A model generated the notes under the pieces. That model saw nothing but the letters and a program-made list of their open reading frames with translations, did not search any database and was not told the origin of the DNA. A DNA stretch of 64,000 nucleotides from Candidatus Kryptoniota bacterium (GTDB lineage: Bacteria > Bacteroidota > Ignavibacteria > Kryptoniales > JAKASW01), in the NCBI GenBank assembly GCA_046706745.1, contig JBJKPC010000003.1, forward strand, positions 1,280 through 65,279. Reading direction: 5' to 3'. Position 1 is the first letter of the stretch, and each line of letters opens with the position of its first letter. Below are positions 3,480 through 15,766 of this stretch, piece after piece. A program made the translations under genes and the position numbers.

Positions 3480-4979
3480 CTATCTGATCGTCATTACCTG
3501 TTCTTCGAAGATCTTCCGAAAATGGAATCCGTATATCGCGAAGGTAATTGCGAGTGGGAATAGTTTCGGCCTCGTAAACAGTGACCAGAAGAACAGGCGC
3601 CAGTAATAGACCCGCTCTTTCGCGATGACCCCGAGCAGAAGCGTGGATTTCAGAAAAGCCTTGATGTCGGCGGCGCTGACTCTGAATACTTTAGCTTGAG
3701 GCGGTTTGAAATCGCGCATAAAATTCTTCACCCGGTGATAATACTCTTTCGGCGAGTAGATTCTGCCGACGATGCTTTTGTAACCGTCTATAAGAATCTC
3801 GCGGTTCATCTTCGGGATGAAGTTCATTGATAAATCGGTATTGTTTCCCGAAAAAACGTGAAGGAGCCTCCCCTCGCTCATGAGCCTCTTGTACAGTTTG
3901 GTCCCTTTTGGAGCGTTCAGAAGTCCGACCATTGCAGTCACGATGCCCGTGTCCTGAATAAATTCGGTCAGCCGATCGAAAATCTGAACGGGGTCGACAT
4001 CGAACCCGACTATGAAACCGCCCTGAACCTGCATACCAAACCGCTGGATCTTCCTGACACTCTCGGCGAGGTCCCTGCTCTTGTTCGGGATCTTCTTGCA
4101 TTCCTGCAGGCTTTCCTCATTTGGGGATTCAATCCCGACGAACACTGCGTTGAATCCGGCCCGGACCATCAGTGTCATCAACTCTTCGTCGTCAGCGGAA
4201 TTCAGAGATACCTCGGTATTGAAATAAAACGGATGTCTGTTCCTGTCCATCCATTGAATGACCGAAGGAAGGATCTCCTTCTTGAGCTTGTTTCTATTCC
4301 CGATAAAGTTGTCGTCGACGAAAAACACGCTCCCTTTCCAGCCCTGGTTACGCAAGCTGTCGAGTTCTGCGATCACCTGTTGATTCGTCTTTGTCCGCGG
4401 AACTCGGCCGTAAAGCACCGTTATGTCGCAGAATTCACAATCGTACGGACAACCCCTCGAATACTGGAGATTCATGGAGGCATAATTCTTGAGTTTGATC
4501 AGGTCCCACTTCGGCACAGGTGTGGAGGACACGTCAGCAAAGTCGGAGGATGAATAGAAGTGTTTCGGAGTGCCGAGGGCGAGATCATCGAGGAACGGCT
4601 TCAGCGTGATTTCCGCCTCGTTCAGCACGAGATGATCGACCTCATCGAACTCATCGTAATAAGAGGTGAACAGCGGGCCGCCCGCTACGGTCTTGCGTCC
4701 GAGCTTTCTGCATCGCGTTATCACCGCTTTAGCGGACTCCCTTTGCACCGTCATCGCACTTATGAAAACGTAGTCCGCCCATTCTATTTCTTCGTCGGAC
4801 AGTGAGTCCACATTGAGATCGACGAGCTTCTTTTCCCATTCATCGGGCACCATCGATGCAACGGTTAGGAGGCCGAGCGGCGGGAATGCCGCCTTCTTCG
4901 AAATGAATTTCAACGCGTGGCGAAAACTCCAGAACGTATCGGGGTAACGCGGATAGACGAAAAGAATCTTCATTGGCAT
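3480..4979 (-). CDS. B12-binding-domain radical SAM protein with DUF4070-type C-terminal tail
   Basis: 499 aa. The N-terminal KILFVYPRYPDTFWSF...PLGLLTVASM is a cobalamin-binding-domain pattern. The CxxxCxxC cluster is SRGCPYDCEFCD. The C-terminal hydrophobic tail (YYWRLFFWSLFTRPKLFPLAITFAIYGFHFRKIF) is typical of this subfamily. Confidence 0.9.
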   Translation of the reverse strand: MPMKILFVYPRYPDTFWSFRHALKFISKKAAFPPLGLLTVASMVPDEWEKKLVDLNVDSLSDEEIEWADYVFISAMTVQRESAKAVITRCRKLGRKTVAGGPLFTSYYDEFDEVDHLVLNEAEITLKPFLDDLALGTPKHFYSSSDFADVSSTPVPKWDLIKLKNYASMNLQYSRGCPYDCEFCDITVLYGRVPRTKTNQQVIAELDSLRNQGWKGSVFFVDDNFIGNRNKLKKEILPSVIQWMDRNRHPFYFNTEVSLNSADDEELMTLMVRAGFNAVFVGIESPNEESLQECKKIPNKSRDLAESVRKIQRFGMQVQGGFIVGFDVDPVQIFDRLTEFIQDTGIVTAMVGLLNAPKGTKLYKRLMSEGRLLHVFSGNNTDLSMNFIPKMNREILIDGYKSIVGRIYSPKEYYHRVKNFMRDFKPPQAKVFRVSAADIKAFLKSTLLLGVIAKERVYYWRLFFWSLFTRPKLFPLAITFAIYGFHFRKIFEEQVMTIR

Positions 4980-5175: not shown

Positions 5176-5781
5176 ATGCCGAGAAGAGTAAGCGTGGAAA
5201 ACATTGCCAAACGGAAGGAACAGATCCTGCGAGCTGCCATAAAAGCCTTTGCCCGCAACGGCCTGAAGGGAACGAGCATGAACGATATCGTACTTGAGTC
5301 CGGCATGAGCAAAGGTGCAATCTATTGGTACTACAACAGCAAGGACGAGATAATTTCCGAGCTGGTCAACTTCTTCTTCGACCCAAAGGAAATGAAAATG
5401 CTGGACCGGTTATTGTCCGAAGGCACTGCGATCGAGAGGATCAAGAAGCTCGCCGATTACACCGCCGAGGCGATGGACAAAATGAAACCTTTCCAGCCCG
5501 TCATCCAGGAATTGTATGTAATCGCGTTCAGGGATGCACAAACGAAGAAGATGGCTACAAAGAGCTTTCAGGAGTCGACATCCCTGCTCGAAAGAATCAT
5601 CGATTACGGAGTGAAGAAAAAGGAATTCAAGCGTGTCGATGCTCATCAGGTATCCGTCTCGATTATCGAGATGATGGAAGGGGCCGCAATGCTCTGGTTC
5701 CTCAACACAAAAGGTTTCGATTATGTCGCACATGTTCGTTTTGGTATAGACTTAATAATAGATGCAATCAAGGTGAATTAA
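5176..5781 (+). CDS. TetR/AcrR-family transcriptional regulator
   Basis: The N-terminal HTH reads RKEQILRAAIKAFARNGLKGTSMNDIVLESGMSKGAIYWYYNSKDEI. GGAGAGG lies 5 nt upstream of ATG 5176 (alternative ATG at 5161). The ORF-track start at 5041 is an upstream extension. Confidence 0.9.
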   Translation: MPRRVSVENIAKRKEQILRAAIKAFARNGLKGTSMNDIVLESGMSKGAIYWYYNSKDEIISELVNFFFDPKEMKMLDRLLSEGTAIERIKKLADYTAEAMDKMKPFQPVIQELYVIAFRDAQTKKMATKSFQESTSLLERIIDYGVKKKEFKRVDAHQVSVSIIEMMEGAAMLWFLNTKGFDYVAHVRFGIDLIIDAIKVN

Positions 5782-6617
5782 TGAGGGCTCTGAAGATGAC
5801 TATGCTGAGAAATACAATCCATTCCTTCGATGGGAAATCGAGCCGGGGATTCTTCCGCTCTTGGATTCCGGTGGAGACGTTTCTCCTGTTGGTGACTTTA
5901 TCTCTAGGCGGGGAAATCTACTCGAACGCTTACGCCCAAACCCCGAAGGAGATCATTCAACGGGCGGAAGACGCCATCAAAGGCAAGATCTCGAGCCATT
6001 CTATCATGGAGATGATCATCAAGACTCCCGACTATACGCGCTCCATGAAGATGGAAAGCTGGACGAGCGGAACGTCGAAGGCGCTCGTAAAAATTCTTTC
6101 GCCGGTACGCGAAGCCGGCAACCGCACTCTCAAGCTCGGAAACGATATCTGGATGTACCTGCGCAACACCGAAACCACGATCCGCATCCCCCCTTCCATG
6201 ATGCTTCAGTCCTGGAACGGTTCGGATTATACATACGACGACATGGTCAGGGAGGAGACACTTTCGAAGGACTACGACATAACGATCGTCGGAACCGAGA
6301 AAATTGGCGGTGTGGAATGCTGGAAGCTCCAGCTTCTCCCGAAGCCGAACGCACCCGTGGTATGGGGAAAGATCCTCTACTGGGTGCGCAAAGCGGACTC
6401 CTTGCCTCAGCAGGTCGAGTACTTCGACGAAAGGGGTAAGCTGATGCGTACAATGGTGATGAGCGCTTTCAGGGTCATGGGCGGTAGACTGATACCGACT
6501 GACTGGACGATGTACAATGCCGACAAGACGCATTCCACCGAGATAAAAATTGAAAAGGCGTCGTTCGATCAGAGAATACCGAGCAGCATTTTTTCGCTGA
6601 GAGAACTGGAGAGGTGA
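5781..6617 (+). CDS. LolA-like outer-membrane lipoprotein-sorting (periplasmic carrier-like) protein
   Basis: The start ATG overlaps the tetR stop (TAATG). A signal peptide ends ...SNAYAQTP. The body (KISSHSIMEMIIKTPDYTRSMKMESW...LKLGNDIWMYL...SDYTYDDM) matches my recollection of the LolA_like family that accompanies FtsX-type ABC exporters. The 5325 start in the ORF track overlaps tetR in another frame. Confidence 0.7.
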   Translation: MRALKMTMLRNTIHSFDGKSSRGFFRSWIPVETFLLLVTLSLGGEIYSNAYAQTPKEIIQRAEDAIKGKISSHSIMEMIIKTPDYTRSMKMESWTSGTSKALVKILSPVREAGNRTLKLGNDIWMYLRNTETTIRIPPSMMLQSWNGSDYTYDDMVREETLSKDYDITIVGTEKIGGVECWKLQLLPKPNAPVVWGKILYWVRKADSLPQQVEYFDERGKLMRTMVMSAFRVMGGRLIPTDWTMYNADKTHSTEIKIEKASFDQRIPSSIFSLRELER

Positions 6618-6636
6618 TGAAGAAAGCTCCGAACCA

Positions 6637-6757
6637 CAAATACCAAATTCCAAACAGAACCCAATTTCGAAACTCCAATCCACAAAGGAAACGAAGCGAG
6701 CTCTGTCTCCGGAAGTCAGGGTTTGTTATTTGGAGCTTGTTTGGAGCTTGGTATTTG
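6637..6757 (+). repeat. long-range inverted repeat in the lolA-like/permease spacer (arms 6637..6656 and 6738..6757)
   Basis: I paired it by hand base by base, giving 18 Watson-Crick pairs, 1 G-U and 1 A-C mismatch over 20 positions. The left arm is CCAA/TCC-rich and the right arm carries the TTGGA repeats. The 3' arm ends 35 nt before the permease A1 start codon. Confidence 0.6.
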
Positions 6758-6792
6758 GAACTTGGAACTTCCCCTGTGCGAGCAACGACTCC

Positions 6793-8022
6793 ATGAAACT
6801 CCTCATTCGAATTGCCTGGCGCAGTCTCTGGCGAAATCGGAGACGCTCCATCCTCGCCATTTCGGCGATCGCATTTGCCGTGGCTTTGGCTATTGTCAGG
6901 CTCGGCTTCGACGACGGCGTATTCGCTCTCTCGCTGAGGACCGCGGTCAGATCATCTACGGGCTATCTGCAGATCCAGAAGACCGGTTACAACGAAAACC
7001 CGACCCTTCAAAAAAGCTTCACCGTAGGTCCACGCATCGAGTCCGTATTGGAGTCCGATCCCGCGCTCAACGGCAGCTCCCCTAGGATCCAGGCGGGCGC
7101 GCTTATCAGCTACCGCAATCAATCACTCGGAGTAATGATAACGGGGGTCGATCCGAAAACGGAGGACCTCATCACCGATTTCCCCAAGAAGGTGATCGAC
7201 GGGAGATTTCTTGCGAGCGATTCGACTCCCGACATCGTGGTTGGATACAAGCTCCTTAGAAATCTTCGGGCTCAAGTCGGCGATTCGGTCGTTGTTCTTG
7301 CGCAGGGATTCGATGGCGTTCTCGACAATATGTTTGTACGAATAGTCGGGACCTTCAGGACCGGTTCCGACGAGTTCGACCGCACCGGTGCTTTCATGAG
7401 CATCCCGGTTCTGCAGAATTTCCTCTCTATGGGCAAGAGGATCAATGCCCTGGCGCTGTCGGTGAAGGATCCCTCGGACGCGGAAAGGATCGCCGGTTCA
7501 CTCGATCCGGTTCTCAAACCACTTGGACTTGTGGCGGTACCCTGGGAAAGACTTCTTCCGCAGCTAAGGCAAACCATGAGTTTCAGCCATGCCGCTCATT
7601 TGATCTTTCTGATACTTTTATTCATAGTGGTCGGCTTCGGTATACTCAACGCCCTGCTGATGTCGGTCACCGAGCGCTTCCGGGAGTTCGGCGTAATGCT
7701 TTCAGTTGGCATGTCCAACCTGAAGCTAGCCGCGACTGTAGCCATAGAAATAGTATTCATGATCCTGATAGGTTTCGTGGTCGGCAACGTCGTCGGAGGG
7801 GGGCTTAATTACTACTTTGCCGTCCATCCGATCGTTATGGGAGGCAACATAGCAGCGTATGTTCACGAGTGGGGGTTTCAGCCGATTGTCCCCTCTTCCC
7901 TTTCTCCCGGAATCTTCGTCACCGCAGGTCTGATCGTGGCCGCAATATCGGTGCTCGCAGCAGTGTATCCGCTGTGGCGTGTAGCAAAGCTGGAGCCGTT
8001 GAAAGGCATAAGGTACACTTGA
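6793..8022 (+). CDS. ABC transporter permease, FtsX/MacB family (paralog A1)
   Basis: The N-terminus MKLLIRIAWRSLWRNRRRS is the FtsX-family signature. A large periplasmic domain follows, then the C-terminal FtsX TM bundle (ILNALLMSVTERFREFGVMLSVGMS). The start is taken at ATG 6793, M22 of the track ORF. Confidence 0.9.
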   Translation: MKLLIRIAWRSLWRNRRRSILAISAIAFAVALAIVRLGFDDGVFALSLRTAVRSSTGYLQIQKTGYNENPTLQKSFTVGPRIESVLESDPALNGSSPRIQAGALISYRNQSLGVMITGVDPKTEDLITDFPKKVIDGRFLASDSTPDIVVGYKLLRNLRAQVGDSVVVLAQGFDGVLDNMFVRIVGTFRTGSDEFDRTGAFMSIPVLQNFLSMGKRINALALSVKDPSDAERIAGSLDPVLKPLGLVAVPWERLLPQLRQTMSFSHAAHLIFLILLFIVVGFGILNALLMSVTERFREFGVMLSVGMSNLKLAATVAIEIVFMILIGFVVGNVVGGGLNYYFAVHPIVMGGNIAAYVHEWGFQPIVPSSLSPGIFVTAGLIVAAISVLAAVYPLWRVAKLEPLKGIRYT

Positions 8023-8250
8023 AATGAAATTCGCAATCATAAATTCTGAACTCGAAACAAATGCTAATTCCAAAATATCATATTCCTGTCCAAACTCGTC
8101 TCTCGGTTGTTTCGGAATTTCGACTTTTGGATTTTGGACTTGTCCCGCTCAATTATCGTATATGGGAATGCGGGATACTGTAAGCCGGAATTTAGGATTT
8201 GGAGTCTCGTGTTTAGGCTTTTTGAATGGGATGACAAGGGGGACTTTAAA
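8023..8250 (+). other. conserved inter-permease spacer element, copy 1 (non-coding; candidate structured leader or internal regulatory element)
   Basis: Over the 231 nt of 8024..8254, which span this spacer, there are 40 mismatches and no indel against 10875..11105 (manual alignment). It is richer in TCC in the 5' half and GGA in the 3' half. It ends in AAGGGGGA-N7-GTG, the start of permease B1. Confidence 0.6.
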
Positions 8251-9480
8251 GTGATCGGCATAATTGCCTGGCGCAACATACTCAGAAACAAACGACGGTC
8301 CCTGATCCTGATCGCGTCCATAGTGGTCGGGGTTGTCGCCCTGGTCCTGACGGAAGGATTTGCCGTCGGGATGCTGCACCAGATGCTGACGAACCAGATC
8401 GGTGCCGATGCGGGATATATCCAGATTCACAGGAACGGGTACCAGTCGGATCCGACGCTCGATAATTCAATGAGCGATCCGCAGGCAATTCGGAAAATAC
8501 TGCGGAAAGAATCCGGCACGCTGAACTACGCCGAGCGTCTCAGGGTGTTCGGACTCGTCAGCAGCGCTTACAACTCGTATGGAGTGTCGATCGTGGGGAT
8601 TATCCCTAAAGAGGAGAAAAAGATCTCTACAATTTCGAAATATGTCCTCAAGGGAGCGTATCTCTCGGGAGAACCGGGGCAGATACTGATAAGCGCTTCC
8701 ATTGCGGAGAAGCTTAGGGTCGGACTCGGCGACAAGATTGTGATCATGGCGTCCCGGGAAGACGGCAGCATCGGCTCAGAGGCATGCAGGATAACGGGCA
8801 TTTACGAAACCTACAACTCAGGTTTCGACCAGTCCCATGTTTATATTCCCATGCAGACTGCCGTACAGATGCTCGATGCGAAAGGACTCGTTTCCGAGTT
8901 CGTAGTGAACCCTCTCGACCCCCAAAAAACCGACCTTGTTGCAGAAACCATCCGGCACGAGGTGGTAGAGTTGCGAGGTCCGAACCACTACGAGGTTCTT
9001 ACCTACGAGCAAATGCTCCCGTTGCTGGTCTCGCAGCTGGCGCTTTACAAGGAGGCTCTTTATCTTATCTCGGTTATCATCGCAATAGCTCTCGTCTTTG
9101 GAATAGTCGACAGTATGATGATGGCAGTTATGGAACGGACACATGAATTCGGCGTGTCGATGGCCATAGGAATGGCAAGTAACAAGATTTTCACAATGGT
9201 GATGACCGAGGCTTTTTTTGTCGCAGTCATAGGAACCGCAATAGGCGTCGCCGCTTCTTATGGAATCATGATCCCACTTTCGCACACAGGCTGGAATCTA
9301 TCGATGTTCTCAGACAGCATGAGATCAGTCGGCGTAGGAAGCGTCATTTATCCCGCGTTCAATGCCTCGGTACTGATGCAAAGCGTCGTCATAATCCCGA
9401 TCGTGACGCTCCTCGGGGCGATTTATCCGGCGTTGAAAGCGATCAAGCTGCAGCCTGTAGACGCGATAAGAGCAGTCTAA
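8251..9480 (+). CDS. ABC transporter permease, FtsX/MacB family (paralog B1)
   Basis: GTG 8251 is preceded by AAGGGGGA. The N-terminus (V/M)IGIIAWRNILRNKRRS is followed by a periplasmic domain and then the FtsX bundle (VDSMMMAVMERTHEFGVSMAIGMA). The track ORF starts further upstream at TTG 8107, inside the spacer. Confidence 0.85.
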   Translation: MIGIIAWRNILRNKRRSLILIASIVVGVVALVLTEGFAVGMLHQMLTNQIGADAGYIQIHRNGYQSDPTLDNSMSDPQAIRKILRKESGTLNYAERLRVFGLVSSAYNSYGVSIVGIIPKEEKKISTISKYVLKGAYLSGEPGQILISASIAEKLRVGLGDKIVIMASREDGSIGSEACRITGIYETYNSGFDQSHVYIPMQTAVQMLDAKGLVSEFVVNPLDPQKTDLVAETIRHEVVELRGPNHYEVLTYEQMLPLLVSQLALYKEALYLISVIIAIALVFGIVDSMMMAVMERTHEFGVSMAIGMASNKIFTMVMTEAFFVAVIGTAIGVAASYGIMIPLSHTGWNLSMFSDSMRSVGVGSVIYPAFNASVLMQSVVIIPIVTLLGAIYPALKAIKLQPVDAIRAV

Positions 9481-9482
9481 AC

Positions 9483-9510
9483 TGGAATATTAGAATTATG
9501 GAATATTGTC
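9483..9510 (+). repeat. 8-nt phased repeat TGGAATAT-TAGAATTA-TGGAATAT starting 3 nt after the B1 stop
   Basis: Read directly. The unit-initial T falls at 9483, 9491 and 9499. A second doublet, TGGATTGA-TGGATCAT, lies at 9585..9600. Confidence 0.7.
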
Positions 9511-9628
9511 CGAAGGACGCTTCGGGGACTAATGTTGAGACACGCAGAACGCGTATCGAAATCCCACACTTCGCGGGAGATTCCTGGATTGATGGATCAT
9601 ACGGCGACGGCAAGCTGAAGGAGCTGAC

Positions 9629-10873
9629 ATGCTGCTGATTCGACTGGCGTGGCGGAGCTTGTGGCGAAACTGGAGGCGATCGATCATAGCGATGGCGGCG
9701 GTTATTTTTGCCATTGCCTTGTCTATAATTCAACGAGGCATGCAGTATGGAACCTACGCCGAGACGATCAGTACCGCGGTCCGCGCATCAACCGGTTATC
9801 TACAAATCCAAAAAGAGGGCTACAACAAGAGTCCGACGCTCGAGAAGAGTTTCGTTATGACGCCCGCCATAGAGAAAGCCATAGAGGATTCACATTCCAT
9901 CGACGGAAGCTCACCCAGAATCGAAACGGAGGCTCTTCTGAGCTACCATGACCAGTCGCTCGGCGCCATGATAATGGGAGTGGCGCCAAAGACGGAGGGG
10001 GAGGTGACCGATTTCCCGAGCAAAGTAGTGCAGGGACGCTTCCTCTCCGTCGATTCATCGGCCGCCGAAAGCAACGTGGCCCAAATCGTCGTGGGCGACA
10101 AACTACTGCAGAATCTGGGCGCGCAGGTCGGGGACTCCGTGGTTGTGCTCGCACAGGGATTCGACGGAATGCTGGGCAACATGTTTGCCAGGATAGTGGG
10201 CACTTTCAGGACCGGTTCAACCGAGTTCGACCGGATGGGCGTCTTCATGAACATCCATTCTCTCCAGGATTTCCTAAATATGGGAAACAGGATAAATGCG
10301 ATCGCGATATCTGTAAGGGATCCCAATGATATTCAACGACTCTCCGAGAAGCTGAGCAGGACGCTCAAGACCCGGGGACTGGTCGCACTCCCCTGGCAGG
10401 ATCTTCTGCCGCAACTTAAGCAGATGATAGAGCTTGACGACTCAAGCGGCGTGCTATATATAATAATACTTCTTTTCGTCGTGGGCTTCGGAATCCTCAA
10501 TACCGTGCTTATGTCGATCACCGAGCGTTTCAGGGAATACGGCGTAATGCTTTCACTCGGCATGTCGCAGGAAAAGTTAGTGCTGGCCGTTGCGCTGGAA
10601 GTTTTCTTCATGCTGGTAATCGGGTTCATCGTCGGGAACGGCATCGGTGTAGCCGTTAACTACTACTGGGTTCACCATCCTATTGTGATCGGCGGAGATA
10701 TGGCAAAGCTATATCAGGAGTACGGATTCGCTCCCGTCTTCGTGTCTTCCCTTTCGTTCAAGGTATTTCTCGATTCGACTCTGACGATCCTCGGGATCTC
10801 TGTAGTAGCCGCCGTTTACCCGCTCTGGCGTGTCCTGCGTCTGGAACCGCTGAAAGGTATAAGGTACACTTGA
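9629..10873 (+). CDS. ABC transporter permease, FtsX/MacB family (paralog A2)
   Basis: MLLIRLAWRSLWRNWRRS..., with GAAGGAG 6 nt upstream of the ATG. It is co-linear with A1 throughout. Confidence 0.9.
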   Translation: MLLIRLAWRSLWRNWRRSIIAMAAVIFAIALSIIQRGMQYGTYAETISTAVRASTGYLQIQKEGYNKSPTLEKSFVMTPAIEKAIEDSHSIDGSSPRIETEALLSYHDQSLGAMIMGVAPKTEGEVTDFPSKVVQGRFLSVDSSAAESNVAQIVVGDKLLQNLGAQVGDSVVVLAQGFDGMLGNMFARIVGTFRTGSTEFDRMGVFMNIHSLQDFLNMGNRINAIAISVRDPNDIQRLSEKLSRTLKTRGLVALPWQDLLPQLKQMIELDDSSGVLYIIILLFVVGFGILNTVLMSITERFREYGVMLSLGMSQEKLVLAVALEVFFMLVIGFIVGNGIGVAVNYYWVHHPIVIGGDMAKLYQEYGFAPVFVSSLSFKVFLDSTLTILGISVVAAVYPLWRVLRLEPLKGIRYT

Positions 10874-11101
10874 AATGAAATTCGACGTTCTAAATTCGAA
10901 ACTCGAAACAAATATTAATTCCACAATTTCATGTTCCTCTCAAAGCTCATCTCTTAATTGTTTCGGAATTTCGACTCTTGGATTTTTGATTCGTCCCGCT
11001 CAATTATCGTATACGGGCATGCGGCATGCCGCAAGGCGGCATTTAGGATTTAGAGTTTCGTGTTTGGACTCTTTGAACGGGATGAAAAGGGGGACTTTCG
11101 A
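10874..11101 (+). other. conserved inter-permease spacer element, copy 2
   Basis: Same length and boundaries as 8023..8250 (TGA-A-ATG at the 5' end, GTGA overlap at the 3' end), at about 83% nt identity. Confidence 0.6.
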
Positions 11102-12316
11102 GTGATCGGCACAATTGCCTGGCGAAACATACTTCGCAACAGGAGGAGGTCGTTCATCCTCATACTTTCGATCATGGTCGGCGTTATCGCAATGATACTC
11201 ACCGATGCGCTGTCGATAGGCATGGTCCGTCAGATGCTGGTGAACCAGATCGGGGCGGACGCCGGTTATATACAGATACACAAGCTAGGTTATTTTACCG
11301 ACCCTGCACTCAAGAACTCAATCGTCTACACCGCCCCTGTTCGCACCGCACTCGCCCCGGACAGTGCCGGATGCAATATATCCGAACGCCTTAGGACATT
11401 CGGCCTGATCAGCAGTGCCTACAATTCGTCAGGCGTCTCGATCGTCGGTATAATTCCGCATGAAGAAAAACGAGTGACTACGGTGCACAGCTACATTGTG
11501 AATGGAACATATCTCACAAATACTCCCGGTAGTATAATCATCAGTACGACTACGGCGGAGAAATTGAAAGTGGGGCTCGGCGACAAAGTAGTTATTATGG
11601 CCTCACGCATCGGAGGAAGCATCGGGTCGGAGGCATGCCGCGTGGTCGGGCTCTTCGAAACTTTCGATTCCGGATTCGACCAGACGCATGTTTATATTCC
11701 GCTTCAGACCGCACAGCAGATGCTCGGCGCTCCGGGAAGAGTATCCGAATTCGTGGTCAATCCGGTCGATGCCCAGAAGACAGACGCAATTGCTGCCCGC
11801 CTCAGAAACGATCTTCCGTCGGGTTTTGAAGTATTGACTTACAAACAGATGCTTCCACTTCTGGTTATGCAGACCCAGCTGTACGACGAGATGATCTATT
11901 TCTTTTATGCAATCATAGCCATTGCCCTCATCTTCGGCATAATCAACACCATGTTGATGGCAGTGATGGAAAGGACGCACGAGTTGGGAATCGATATGGC
12001 GATCGGCATGTCTCACAGGCGAATTTTCGCGATGATACTGATCGAAGCATTTTACCTGGGTCTCGCCGGCACCGCGGTCGGGCTTGCGATCTCCTTCGCT
12101 ATTTATATTCCGCTCGCACACAGCGGATGGAACCTGGCTGCGTTCTCCGAGAGTCTGAAATCGATAGGAGTCGGGACGACTATTTACCCCGTCCTTACGG
12201 CATCGTCGCTGATCAACACGATAGTGATTATCCCCTTTGCTGCCGTATTGGGGGCGATCTACCCGGCAATACGCGCGATAAAGCTGCAACCGGTTGACGC
12301 GATCAGAGCGAGTTAG
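11102..12316 (+). CDS. ABC transporter permease, FtsX/MacB family (paralog B2)
   Basis: GTG 11102 is homologous to the B1 start. The sequence reads (V/M)IGTIAWRNILRNRRRS...INTMLMAVMERTHELGIDMAIGMS. The track ORF begins at GTG 11060. Confidence 0.85.
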   Translation: MIGTIAWRNILRNRRRSFILILSIMVGVIAMILTDALSIGMVRQMLVNQIGADAGYIQIHKLGYFTDPALKNSIVYTAPVRTALAPDSAGCNISERLRTFGLISSAYNSSGVSIVGIIPHEEKRVTTVHSYIVNGTYLTNTPGSIIISTTTAEKLKVGLGDKVVIMASRIGGSIGSEACRVVGLFETFDSGFDQTHVYIPLQTAQQMLGAPGRVSEFVVNPVDAQKTDAIAARLRNDLPSGFEVLTYKQMLPLLVMQTQLYDEMIYFFYAIIAIALIFGIINTMLMAVMERTHELGIDMAIGMSHRRIFAMILIEAFYLGLAGTAVGLAISFAIYIPLAHSGWNLAAFSESLKSIGVGTTIYPVLTASSLINTIVIIPFAAVLGAIYPAIRAIKLQPVDAIRAS

Positions 12317-12356
12317 TGGAATGATGGAACAATGGAATGTCGGAATAATGGGAACT
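12317..12356 (+). repeat. five phase-locked 8-nt units TGGAATGA-TGGAACAA-TGGAATGT-CGGAATAA-TGGGAACT
   Basis: Read directly. The first unit starts on the base after the B2 stop codon (TAG 12314..12316), and units begin at 12317, 12325, 12333, 12341 and 12349. Confidence 0.8.
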
Positions 12357-12517
12357 CTGATTTTAGGATCGACGGGTTTATACGTTAAAGAGGGATGTCT
12401 CAACCGGTGGTCTCGACTAGTCCGCTTTTTTTATCCGGGAAATAAGCGAGAATTTGAACGCACGAAGCTGAGCGGTAACCGGCCACAGCTGACTGCGAGG
12501 CAAGGAGCAACTTAAGC

Positions 12518-13222
12518 ATGAACTCAAGGAACACAAATGAAATCGTCCGCGTCGAAGGCGTGAGAAAAGTTTATCAAGATAACGGAGTACCGGTGGACGC
12601 ACTGCGCGGGATCAATCTCACCGTTTCATCGGGTGACTTCTCGGTTATTGCTGGTCCGTCGGGGTCGGGAAAGACAACTCTCCTGAACATTGTCGGCACG
12701 CTCGACAAGCCTTCCGAAGGGAAGGTGTTTCTCGATGGAGAGGACGTGGCATCGAAGTCCAGACGAGAACTCGCCGATATAAGGTTGAGGAAGATCGGTT
12801 TCGTCTTCCAGGCCTACAACCTCAACCCCGTTCTGAGCGCTCTGGAAAACGTGGAGTTTACGATGATGCTTCGCGGTATCGATTCCGCGGAGAGGAAACG
12901 TAAGGGTCTTGCCCTGCTCGAGGAGCTCGGCATTGGTGAACTCGCCCACAAGCGCCCAAACGAAATGAGCGGCGGCCAGCAGCAGCGTGTCGCCATCGCG
13001 CGCGCAATCTCCAACGATCCGCGGCTCGTCCTAGCCGACGAGCCTACTGCCAACCTCGACTCCGAAACGTCGGACAGGCTTCTGGACCTCATGGAAAAGC
13101 TCAACCATGAAGACGGGATAACGTTTGTATTTTCGTCCCACGACCCGCAGGTCATCGAGCGTGCGCACAGGCTGCTCATACTTAAAGACGGCCAGATAGT
13201 GACTGACAAGGTCAACGCGTGA
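12518..13222 (+). CDS. ABC transporter ATP-binding protein (LolD/MacB-type)
   Basis: Walker A GPSGSGKTTLLN, signature LSGGQQQRVAIARA, Walker B LVLADEPTANLD and an H-loop SSHD. Confidence 0.95.
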   Translation: MNSRNTNEIVRVEGVRKVYQDNGVPVDALRGINLTVSSGDFSVIAGPSGSGKTTLLNIVGTLDKPSEGKVFLDGEDVASKSRRELADIRLRKIGFVFQAYNLNPVLSALENVEFTMMLRGIDSAERKRKGLALLEELGIGELAHKRPNEMSGGQQQRVAIARAISNDPRLVLADEPTANLDSETSDRLLDLMEKLNHEDGITFVFSSHDPQVIERAHRLLILKDGQIVTDKVNA

Positions 13223-13224
13223 CG

Positions 13225-13300
13225 GATGAAGATGGGATAGTGGAAGAGTGGAATATTGGAACGGTGGAATGATGGATTGCGGGTTTGATGGAGTGCAGGT
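13225..13300 (+). repeat. about nine phase-locked 8-nt units of consensus TGGAANNN
   Basis: GATGAAGA-TGGGATAG-TGGAAGAG-TGGAATAT-TGGAACGG-TGGAATGA-TGGATTGC-GGGTTTGA-TGGAGTGC. The unit-initial T falls at 13233, 41, 49, 57, 65, 73 and 89. The array begins 3 nt after the ATPase stop (TGA 13220..13222). Confidence 0.8.
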
Positions 13301-14580
13301 TGCGCATTTGTCGGCATAAGCAAAAAGAAATAAGGCGGTTGTTTCGCCGTCCATTCCCAGTATGCCGTGATCGCGCGCCGAAGTGCGGCGTTTCGTCACG
13401 CAGGCGAGTTCCGTTCTCCTTTTTCCTTTTCCCGGTTCTCTGTCTCTTCGGAGTCTCCTCCGCCTTCGCGCAAACGCCGCTTTTCCCTGGAACCGAACTG
13501 AATTTCTCCGGCTATGTCATGGAAATGCCGGTGTATGAAAACATCCAACAGACGTTGGCCCAGCTGACAAACACATCGAGTTCCGGATTTGAGAATCTCG
13601 CCAGATTAAGACTCCGGCCAACCCTGCACATCGGCGACAATACGAAGATTGGTCTCGAATACGAGATCGACGGACTGTATCACTCCGAGAATGTCTCATT
13701 CGGTTTGATCGCAACGACTCCCCTACGGCAGGTAGTCAGCCTGCGCTGGAGCCCTGTCGACACCAGACATGTAACAGTTTCCGACTATGTCGACAGACTC
13801 TACCTTGACGAGGAATTCTCTTTCGGAAAGTTTGTCCTCGGAAGACAACGTATAAGCTGGGGAGTCGGGCGCGTATGGCAGCCGACCGATATTTTCAATC
13901 CAATAAATCCCGCCAACTTCGGCAAAATCGAAAAAGACGGAGCCGACGCTGCCTCGATGAAATTCTACCTCGGACAGCTCACCGATCTTCAACTTGTCTA
14001 CAATGCGGAATATCATTTCAGCTCTTCGAATTACGCAGCAAGATTCAGGACCAATGTCTTGGGATACGATCTGGCCGTCCTGGGCGGATCGGTTGACCGG
14101 AGGCTCATCGGTGGAGGAGATTTTGCAGGCAATGTCTGGACCGCAGGGATACGTGGGGAAGCGCTTATATCGCAGGATCCTTCGAAGTCGCACGACTATT
14201 ACATAAGATGGATACTAGGAATGGATTACCAGTTCACGGACAAACTCTATGCACTATTCGAGTACTATCACAACGGACAGGGTACTCTCAACCGTTTTGC
14301 ATACGATTTAACCGGCCTTTATGAAGGAAGGATCCTCAACGTCGCGAAAGATTACCTCGCGTTGAGCGGGACGTACCAGCTGACGTCCCTGGTTACCGTG
14401 ATGCTGTCATCCATTTCAAATTTCAATGACGGAAGCGGTTATATCTCCGGTACCGTCAGCTATTCGGCAAGCGACAACGCGTCGCTTGCTATCGGTTCGC
14501 TTTATGCTTTCGGAAAAACATTCACCGAATACTGGTACTATCCTCAGGCCTACTACATAAAACTTGAAACTTATTTCTGA
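13288..14580 (+). CDS. outer-membrane beta-barrel (porin-like) protein of unknown function
   Basis: A signal-like segment RRRVPFSFFLFPVLCLFGVSSAFAQ is followed by alternating beta-strand-like sequence, a GRQRISWGVGRVWQPTDIFNPINP motif and a C-terminus ...YYIKLETYF (terminal Phe). The start codon is uncertain (ATG 13288 or TTG 13339), and the N-terminal extension overlaps the repeat array. Confidence 0.7.
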   Translation: MECRLRICRHKQKEIRRLFRRPFPVCRDRAPKCGVSSRRRVPFSFFLFPVLCLFGVSSAFAQTPLFPGTELNFSGYVMEMPVYENIQQTLAQLTNTSSSGFENLARLRLRPTLHIGDNTKIGLEYEIDGLYHSENVSFGLIATTPLRQVVSLRWSPVDTRHVTVSDYVDRLYLDEEFSFGKFVLGRQRISWGVGRVWQPTDIFNPINPANFGKIEKDGADAASMKFYLGQLTDLQLVYNAEYHFSSSNYAARFRTNVLGYDLAVLGGSVDRRLIGGGDFAGNVWTAGIRGEALISQDPSKSHDYYIRWILGMDYQFTDKLYALFEYYHNGQGTLNRFAYDLTGLYEGRILNVAKDYLALSGTYQLTSLVTVMLSSISNFNDGSGYISGTVSYSASDNASLAIGSLYAFGKTFTEYWYYPQAYYIKLETYF

Positions 14581-14638
14581 CAGGTGATCCGGTTGACTGC
14601 CGATCCGACCTAAAGAAGCCAGCCCCGCTCAAGCCGGC

Positions 14639-15766
14639 TCAAAAAGGCAGGCGCCAGACGCTCCCGTCACTCATCTGAATGAAAATGTAGTTGCCGGCCT
14701 GGCTGAAGGCGTAGACCCCGGCATTGGGCAAATTCCCAACTATATCTGCCCAGCTTCCGCCGTCGTTCCTGGAAAGAAAGATACCGTTGTCATCGATCAC
14801 AACCAGACTCGAATCCGAAGCTGCGATGCCGATCCCCGACTGTGCACTGCCGGGCAGGTTGCCGCTTATGTCCGTCCAGCTCAAGCCGTTGTTTTGGGAA
14901 AGATAAACCTGCGTCCCGAGAGCTGCGGCGTACAATTTCCCGTTATGGAGGAGCAAAGAAGCGACTGTCGGAGACCCGGAGAAGTAGGGGCTCTGGTTCA
15001 CCAGCCCGCTGTCGTTTGCTATCCAACTCTGACCTCCGTCGCTCGAGAGAAACGTACCGTTCTGGGTACCCGTGATGATGTTCGGGCCCGCAGAGACGAT
15101 GCTGTACGCGCTGCTCCCATAGCTTATCCCGTCATTCGTGGCGTGCCATGTTCTACCGCCATCGGTCGATTTGAAGATTCCGTTCGAAGATGTGCCGGCA
15201 AAGATCGTGGAATCGACCGATGCCATACAGAGTATAGTCTGATAGAAACCGGCGTAGGACGTACTCAATCCGGAGTCCGCTGCCACCCATGTAGAACCGC
15301 TGTCGCTTGAAATGAAAATGCCGTTTCCGCTGCTGTAGTCCCCGATGAAAAGTTTCCCGTTAATGGCAGCAATCGTATATCCGCCTGAAGGAAGGGCTGT
15401 GTCAACCTCTGTCCAGCTGCTGCCGTTGTCGATGGAGCGGAAAATGCCATAGTTGCCGGCTGCGTACATCACTGATCCGAGCATCGCTATATTGTAGAAC
15501 CCGGTCAGACCGGTCACCTGAGTCCAGCTTGTGGAGCCCGTGTTCGCCGGCGGTCCGACTACACTGGTGGCTTGGTTGCATCCTGCCAGAGCAAAAATTG
15601 AAACAAGGGAAAGCAACGCCAGCAGACGGCGCTTCCCGGATCTGCCGGAAAGACCAGTTGCGAATTCAAGGGAAGTGGCGCGAACGGCCCCAGATATCAA
15701 TTCTCTACCACTCTCAGTTGCACCCTCCGAATCCATTATCGATCTTAACTCCCTTTTGAACATCAT
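14639..15766 (-). CDS. BNR/Asp-box repeat beta-propeller lipoprotein
   Basis: Lipobox LVSIFALAGC, plus six SxDxGxxW-type repeats (SIDNGSSW, SSDSGSTW, STDGGRTW, SSDGGQSW, SQNNGLSW, SRNDGGSW). The start may be the internal Met at 15736. Confidence 0.85.
   Translation of the reverse strand: MMFKRELRSIMDSEGATESGRELISGAVRATSLEFATGLSGRSGKRRLLALLSLVSIFALAGCNQATSVVGPPANTGSTSWTQVTGLTGFYNIAMLGSVMYAAGNYGIFRSIDNGSSWTEVDTALPSGGYTIAAINGKLFIGDYSSGNGIFISSDSGSTWVAADSGLSTSYAGFYQTILCMASVDSTIFAGTSSNGIFKSTDGGRTWHATNDGISYGSSAYSIVSAGPNIITGTQNGTFLSSDGGQSWIANDSGLVNQSPYFSGSPTVASLLLHNGKLYAAALGTQVYLSQNNGLSWTDISGNLPGSAQSGIGIAASDSSLVVIDDNGIFLSRNDGGSWADIVGNLPNAGVYAFSQAGNYIFIQMSDGSVWRLPF

Follow-up and report, generated by a model that had tools for sequence, protein, structure and literature searches.

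In the TRAP/HutP systems of Bacillus, phased (G/U)AG or UAG triplets are bound by a ring-shaped RNA-binding protein. Another kind of repeated sequence is represented by the REP/BIME elements, repetitive extragenic sequences of E. coli transporter operons, which are imperfect palindromes that act as hairpins. At the DNA level, AbrB recognizes TGGNA half-sites that occur as tandem or palindromic pairs with A/T-rich linkers (PMC3025583). Paired arrays of three to five tandem hepta- or octanucleotide repeats, lying on opposite strands at a variable distance, have been described in Geobacter metallireducens, and the proposal there was that global regulators bind these repeats in the DNA (PMC2700814). 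RbpB, an RRM-1 protein of Bacteroides, has an in vitro KD of 5.1 uM for GUAGGAUA repeated three times in tandem and leaves a C/U motif unbound, and Bacteroidetes are without Hfq, ProQ and CsrA (10.1101/2021.04.27.441718). How genes are controlled post-transcriptionally in uncultured phyla and in the FCB group is poorly understood, since they lack the classical RNA chaperones.

The element considered here, a row of phased octamers at the boundary between two cistrons of an ABC-transporter operon, was picked out in a first-pass annotation of the locus. From the comparisons reported below we conclude that it is probably a docking strip, as yet putative, for a nucleic-acid-binding protein.

The operon and its octamer arrays

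The row of octamers (array B) lies in an ABC-transporter operon of the Lol/MacB type in a Candidatus Kryptonia bacterium, within a 64-kb window, which is the whole stretch of DNA that was analysed. The features of the locus are as follows.

5325..11059, + strand: upstream part of the operon, with four more FtsX/MacB_PCD permease paralogs (Pfam)
9483..9506, + strand: array A (weak), TGGAATAT TAGAATTA TGGAATAT, 3 nt past the TAA of the permease at 8107-9480
11060..12316, + strand: permease B2, of the FtsX/MacB ABC-transporter type (Pfam MacB_PCD and FtsX)
12317..12356, + strand: array B, five phased octamers read in the sequence
12357..12517, + strand: rest of the permease-ATPase spacer, containing the Shine-Dalgarno sequence AAGGAG at 12502-12507
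12518..13222, + strand: ABC-transporter ATPase (Pfam ABC_tran, E = 2.5e-33)
13224..13299, + strand: array C, about nine phased GG(A) octamers, beginning 1 nt past the TGA stop of the ATPase
13285-14580: exported protein of about 400 aa, found after the ATPase in every ortholog, with no Pfam family

The upstream permease paralogs, located at about 5325-6617, 6794-8022, 8107-9480 and 9629-10873, are separated by low-complexity spacers, and the five paralogs share a single ATPase gene, there being no other in the operon. The order TetR, LolA-like TP_0789, permeases, ATPase and unknown exported protein is kept across orthologous loci. The open reading frame of permease B2 is listed from a GTG at 11060, and a 418-aa NCBI protein matches it at 100%; its 404-aa orthologs, which share the C-terminal end ...AIRA(S/N)*, suggest that GTG 11102 is the real start. 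For the exported protein, which has a signal peptide ending in AFAQT and an invariant RLRLRPT..GDNTK motif, the start annotated in the window is probably too far upstream, and array C sits upstream of the conserved part of this protein.

The spacers at 6618-6793 and 10874-11059 carry low-complexity repeats different from those of array B, namely a CCAAA-type arm with a TTTGGA-type arm behind it, and AAAYTCG-type repeats that precede their own complement. Long hairpins are predicted for both spacers (z = -2.6 for 6612-6800), and orthologous loci have the same pattern of hairpin-type low-complexity spacers.

Array B opens on the first base past the TAG of permease B2 (12314-12316) and consists of an 8-base repeat, UGGAAUNN, present five times, with units starting at 12317 (TGGAATGA), 12325 (TGGAACAA), 12333 (TGGAATGT), 12341 (CGGAATAA) and 12349 (TGGGAACT). 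A uniform RNA of five such units would read (UGGAAUGA)5. Four of its GGA triplets stand at exact 8-nt spacing, and the fifth is one base out of register inside a GGGA. The ATPase ATG follows at 12518, 161 nt past the end of the array. The first-pass annotation had placed the units, the stop codon and the start of the array on the next base in just this way, and had put the ATPase start, with a Shine-Dalgarno sequence of its own, some 160 nt further on, all of which can be read directly in the sequence.

The pattern GGA-N5-GGA-N5-GGA-N5-GGA has three matches in the window (12318, 13242 and 13250), all on the + strand, against an expectation of 0.02 per window, and none of 100 dinucleotide-preserving shuffles reached three. 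On both strands of the window, period 8 is alone among periods 4 to 14 in having runs of at least four GGA, and Tandem Repeats Finder calls arrays B and C. With seven GGA among its roughly nine GG units, array C has the consensus and the strand of array B; the two arrays have the repeat in common and their flanks are unrelated. This agrees with what had been proposed earlier, namely that array B matches the array after the ATPase gene in consensus, period and strand, that the surrounding spacers are unrelated, and that the motif recurs independently rather than by duplication of a whole spacer. A short GC hairpin at 9509-9528 lies just 3′ of the weak array A.

The array at orthologous junctions

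We compared twelve orthologous operons, that of the window included, whose permease B2 shares 70-100% identity with the protein of the window. In eight of them (the window, L250, L001, L003, L005, L252, L129 and L253) a period-8 array of 3-7 units begins 0-6 nt past the same stop codon. The remaining four (L251, L126, L127 and L128) have no array at this junction, so array B is dispensable; the spacers of L126, L127 and L128 are only 26-59 nt long. The flanks of the orthologous arrays are unalignable, the permease-ATPase spacers range from 26 to 423 nt, and species differ in how the array is phased to the stop codon. The alignment of orthologous spacers that had been proposed as a check thus shows, in the eight array-bearing operons of the twelve, that the number of units changes between species whereas their phase and consensus persist. 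At the junction of array C, arrays are present in L001, L003, L126 and L253 and absent in L005, L252, L127 and L128, and at that of array A there are full five-unit arrays in L005 and L252. Contigs of different sources that encode an identical permease protein carry identical arrays (L001/L002, L003/L004 and L005/L006).

Two orthologs have short spacers of particular layout. In L250, the closest relative, the 31-nt spacer is nothing but four units, which run right up to the ATG of the ATPase. In the outgroup L128, the 26-nt spacer reads TGAATGA TGGAGTTA TGTGACA ATG, with the Shine-Dalgarno sequence in the octamer register, so that this octamer, with the ATPase Shine-Dalgarno sequence in it, may be what the array grew from.

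On this basis the units could be ribosome-directed, as a row of Shine-Dalgarno-like GGA boxes amplified from that octamer and serving as a re-initiation hold or as an unstructured loading pad. Besides the register seen in L128, the first unit is GGAG in several arrays, the array of L250 reaches the ATG, AUG codons are frequent in the units, and the first AUG lies 2-6 nt past the stop in four species. However, GGAG is found in only 4 of 62 units, and A or U follows GGA in 90% of them, so that pairing with the anti-Shine-Dalgarno sequence is weakened to 3 bp. In most species, moreover, the array is 90-380 nt away from the start codon and the ATPase has its own AAGGAG, and the open reading frames that start in the array are not conserved. 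We therefore regard a ribosome-directed role as very unlikely.

The lack of conservation of these reading frames also bears on the coding capacity of the array. A 64-aa ORF (12321-12515) begins at an AUG within array B and closes 2 nt short of the ATPase start codon, in a coupling-like arrangement. The longest array-initiated ORFs of the orthologs are 76, 37, 27 and 10 aa long and are alike only within the repeat. We rejected a small protein or leader peptide, since array-initiated ORFs are unconserved in both length and sequence, and likewise a coding array, since the 64-aa ORF is unconserved and the phase of the array to the stop varies among species. A function as fail-safe stop codons was rejected as well, because in-frame read-through of the TAG stays open for 23 codons.

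Some related repeats were found at neighbouring junctions and in a more distant group. Among the more distant relatives in Kryptonia, the second permease is followed by a junction with TGAAT-type repeats (TGAATTAT, TGAATTTT, TTGAAATA) in place of TGGAAT; they sit at 5709-5757 in L126, 5725-5775 in L128, 5653-5688 in L129 and 5533-5643 in L253, and are a variant of the TGGAAT theme that is one G shorter. The homologous operon of a Calditrichota genome has sense-strand GGA arrays directly past two stop codons, with a period of 7, not 8. In one of these contigs (L255, 6908-6990) the ATPase stop is followed by the period-7 array GGAATGC GGAGTTC GGAATGC GGAATGT, which is identical in three contigs. 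At another post-stop junction, near-identical Calditrichota strains with an identical permease carry different heptamer arrays, (GTCAGTT)3 in L254 (3215-3300) and (GGATGCT)5-6 in L255 (3036-3121) and L256 (3037-3122), and this junction is therefore a hot spot of tandem-repeat turnover.

Consensus and constraint

A logo of 62 units gave the consensus T-G-G-A-(A/T)-T-R-N, with T at 77%, G at 98%, G at 100%, A at 89%, A/T at 90% (A 63% or T 27%), T at 82%, a purine at 82% and any base at the last position. C makes up about 6% of the units overall, and its avoidance at the variable positions is confined to one strand. As the GG columns set the register, only the remaining columns count as independent evidence. 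The GGA motif of the first-pass annotation stands as the core of the unit, but what is conserved is longer than GGA.

At fourfold-degenerate sites of the adjacent permease gene, identity between the window and its array-bearing relatives is 0.30-0.43, where chance would give 0.27; these values are near chance, so neutral sequence has been randomised between the array-bearing species. A random decay of the unit consensus among relatives, which had been named as an outcome that would speak against the motif, was not seen, even though synonymous sites are saturated. Units of one array are no more alike than units of different arrays: identity at the variable positions is 0.467 within arrays and 0.483 between them (permutation p = 0.86), and adjacent units, at 0.494, show no excess. 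As similarity within arrays is not raised, a young or constantly re-amplified slippage repeat is unlikely. Across 200.5 kb of Kryptonia DNA, made up of the window and 11 loci, there are 13 arrays of four or more units, every one of them in sense orientation and at a junction of the transporter operon; shuffled windows gave 0.145 such arrays per 64 kb. Independent sense-strand events in the transporter operon family are few, about five. The retention of array B at the same junction beyond neutral saturation indicates that the element behaves as one under constraint.

These results bear most directly on the idea that the arrays are functionless low-complexity repeats of the STRR kind, turned over by slippage in intercistronic spacers that tolerate them. 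The variation between 3 and 7 units at the same junction in eight species is indeed a trait of VNTRs, and four relatives have no array there. Other low-complexity arrays occur in spacers of the same operon, many perfect octamer microsatellites are found among the genome-scan matches listed, and the Calditrichota junction with (GGATGCT)n in some strains and (GTCAGTT)n in another shows rapid turnover at that place. Yet the phase and a consensus of seven positions survive although neutral sites are saturated, the units of one array, adjacent ones included, show no extra likeness, arrays are identical in contigs that have an identical permease and come from different sources, and within 200 kb they are confined to the transporter operon. 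Adjacent units are not near-identical, as those of a recently amplified slippage microsatellite or VNTR would be, and we consider functionless turnover quite unlikely.

Predicted structure and known RNA classes

Array B taken alone is predicted to be essentially structureless (MFE -0.3 kcal/mol), and the whole permease-ATPase spacer folds less well than its shuffles (z = +2.1). Neither a REP/BIME-like element nor a terminator hairpin was retained as a candidate, the spacer having no stable stem, no partner for the array and no terminator-like site. No promoter-like site was found on the + strand of the spacer either, where the lone promoter-like match is on the - strand (12388-12360). The units do resemble an extended -10 element (TGnTATAAT), but a promoter role is unlikely because array pairs in other phyla are head-on. 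A G-quadruplex was rejected as well: none was predicted with quadruplex folding allowed, the model energy of two layers with 18 loop nt coming to +15 kcal/mol. A long-range pairing partner elsewhere in the operon was likewise dismissed, as the best duplex is weaker than those obtained for shuffled arrays. Predicted accessibility is above control in 3 of 15 arrays and some arrays are predicted to be paired; given this mixed picture across the orthologs, we make no claim of conserved accessibility.

Searches against Rfam 15 gave no match at gathering score in the whole window, none at E <= 5 in 5200-14700, and none at the arrays of 20 array-bearing loci from other phyla. No gene for an RRM protein was found by its RNP-1 signature in the sampled Kryptonia loci.

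Similar arrays in other phyla

Pattern scans of species-representative genomes and of metagenomes, which are samples and not a census, returned arrays of GGAAT-N2-T octamers in Bacteroidota, Desulfobacterota, Verrucomicrobiota, Nitrospinota, Gammaproteobacteria and others among the matches listed. At least 51 of these arrays have an inverted partner within 250 nt, and at least 49 of the pairs are ordered GGAAT...ATTCC. The intergenic regions that hold pairs are tandem or convergent, and rarely divergent, among the matches listed. Solo arrays between co-directional genes are sense in 26 cases and antisense in 22 (p = 0.67, matches listed); this lack of strand bias fits a DNA-level or orientation-neutral element better. 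Arrays right past stop codons outnumber their counterparts by 22 to 9 among the matches listed, an enrichment that is partly an artefact because sense arrays carry stops whereas antisense arrays are open in all frames. Inside ORFs, 16 solo arrays of the matches listed are on the opposite strand and 9 on the same strand. Exact-string and keyword searches of the literature found no paper describing GGAAT octamer arrays.

Two layouts among these loci are worth recording. In a Verrucomicrobiota pst-like ABC-transporter operon (L014, 4730-4894 and 6240-6373), two junctions have the order stop, GGAAU array, short spacer, AUUCC array, GGAGG and start, a layout that resembles REP elements in E. coli transporter operons. 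Arrays of the Desulfobacterales type share an outer flank, GAGAACTTAGTTCGCTTCGCTCACAATT (L049 at about 3530-3560, L106 at about 5984-6010 on the - strand, L194 at about 832-860 and L147 at about 1563-1590), and this shared flank suggests a repeated element family that includes the array.

The paired arrays raise the possibility that array B belongs to a REP-like hairpin between cistrons, acting as mRNA stabiliser or terminator, of which it is one arm while the other has been lost or lies elsewhere. The 49 GGAAT-then-ATTCC pairs among the matches listed are in keeping with such an arm, and the paired variable positions are complementary above chance in those matches (0.64 vs 0.53); the Verrucomicrobiota layout just described and the long hairpins of other spacers in the window's operon point the same way. 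Against it, no TTCC-type partner was found in any orthologous permease-ATPase spacer, and the weak operon duplex and poor folding of the spacer reported above, both worse than for the shuffled controls, speak against an arm as well. For array B a hairpin arm is highly improbable.

A better case can be made for action in DNA. Here the units would be phased half-sites for an oligomeric DNA-binding protein, for which an AbrB/MraZ-like swapped-hairpin protein, a ribbon-helix-helix protein or a nucleoid-associated 'global regulator' would be candidates, and the array would form a roadblock or a structural element inside the operon. Both TGGAA and TGGAT are versions of the AbrB half-site TGGNA, the ring of MraZ opens to bind four phased boxes (PMC12957436), and one of the tandem-repeat arrays of Geobacter metallireducens lies between the proBA genes (PMC2700814). 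The absence of strand bias in the GGAAT arrays of other phyla (26 vs 22 among the matches listed) is also in line with a DNA element, and opposite-strand pairs are common, 49 of 51 being in one relative order among the matches listed. The spacing does not agree, however, being 3 nt (period 8) and not the 4-6 nt (period 9-10) of AbrB and MraZ. Furthermore, the arrays are located in intercistronic spacers and at the 3′ ends of genes and are under-represented in divergent (promoter) regions, with 7 divergent against 13 convergent solo arrays among the matches listed, and in the transporter operon family they are all on the sense strand and avoid C on one strand only. Going by these sequence features, DNA-level half-sites are possible, if rather unlikely, and they are the main rival of the RNA reading given next.

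A possible role in RNA

The slippage, ribosome-directed and orphan-hairpin readings are less likely than an array that works at the RNA or the DNA level. Between these two we tentatively prefer RNA, at clearly less than an even chance: at the cistron boundary, array B may offer a small RNA-binding protein a multivalent platform of single-stranded RNA. We favour this because the array lies inside the operon transcript, is always sense here, avoids C, has no partner and can fill the region between the cistrons. That it acts in RNA and not in DNA, that it is bound by a protein, which protein this would be and what regulation would follow are all things that we infer.

On the RNA reading, the array, with the consensus U-G-G-A-(A/U)-U-R-N, would lie within the polycistronic operon transcript and offer one GGA(W)U site per unit. 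The 8-nt register would allow several small single-stranded-RNA-binding proteins, or the subunits of an oligomer, to sit side by side at the cistron boundary. The bound protein might shield the 3′ side of the permease cistron from decay or processing, or expose it to them. Alternatively, it might control the access of Rho to the untranslated spacer, or, where the two adjoin as they do in L250, it might cover the start codon of the following gene. Each of these routes would tune the amount of ATPase relative to the five permease paralogs, and the array could thereby account for the balance between a single ATPase gene and five permease paralogs.

Several observations count against an RNA platform. 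No candidate binder is encoded in the sampled loci, the array is dispensable (absent from 4 of the 12 operons), its predicted accessibility is mixed and independent events are few. The period of 7 in Calditrichota, the lack of strand bias in other phyla and the DNA precedents of TGGNA half-sites and four-box operators also weigh on the other side.

As to the protein, an RRM-1-type binder is only a lead. A bolder version would have the UGGAWU arrays at cistron boundaries be an undescribed class of natural multivalent sites. In lineages free of Hfq, ProQ and CsrA, small RNA chaperones of the RRM-1 or a similar type would bind them, and the arrays would set the stoichiometry of ABC-transporter subunits; we think this quite improbable. 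If it were true, the paired GGAAU...AUUCC versions would be protein-switchable hairpins whose protein-binding arm is always transcribed first. Whether its reader binds RNA or DNA, an element that is easily searched for and is held by selection would be a concrete bait for that protein.

Comparison with known systems

Like REP/BIME elements, array B is located between cistrons of an ABC-transporter operon and near a stop codon, but it has no palindrome and no partner. The clusters of CsrA/RsmA sites, in the CsrB/RsmZ sponges and in leaders of the pgaA type, resemble it in having several GGA close together, and in L250 alone there is a further CsrA-like trait, its final units extending over the region where ribosomes would bind for the gene that follows. 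Unlike CsrA sites, the GGA triplets of array B are outside hairpin loops, strictly periodic and 161 nt from the ATPase start. Moreover, Bacteroidetes, which belong to the FCB group as Kryptonia do, are without CsrA (10.1101/2021.04.27.441718).

The RbpB ligand of Bacteroides thetaiotaomicron, (GUAGGAUA)x3, is a synthetic probe and not a natural site, and CLIP peaks of RbpB point to other motifs. Its likeness to the arrays is that it is made of tandem 8-nt units of G, U and A that contain GGAU and are free of C.

With TRAP/HutP sites, array B as we read it would share short purine-rich cores, a fixed short spacing, variable spacer bases and multivalency. Those sites differ in having a (G/U)AG core and a period of 5-7 and in lying in a 5′ leader by a terminator, whereas the arrays described here have GGA(W)U, a period of 8 and a post-stop position. 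We rejected a TRAP/HutP-type array proper, in which 6-11 triplets are 2-4 nt apart, since the GGA triplets are 5 nt apart here. The number of units here, 5-9, is a further point of difference from both TRAP/HutP and AbrB/MraZ sites. AbrB and MraZ operators are phased direct repeats read by an oligomer, as the arrays may be, and the units do contain the TGGNA box; unlike these operators, the array has a period of 8 and not 9-10, is intercistronic and has no promoter-like site on the + strand.

The arrays of Geobacter metallireducens have other consensus sequences (GTTGCTYN, TCTCCGTS and MTYCTGA) and were read as sites for IHF/HU-like proteins; they are paired, while the arrays of the window are solo and all on the sense strand. 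Classes 1-3 of that species are nevertheless similar in form, with three to five degenerate tandem units of 7-8 nt in intergenic or intercistronic positions (proB-proA), and their paired architecture matches that of the GGAAT arrays of other phyla. Array B also draws attention to a wider group of degenerate octamers, arrayed at the ends of genes across many phyla, for which the descriptive note on G. metallireducens is the sole precedent that we found.
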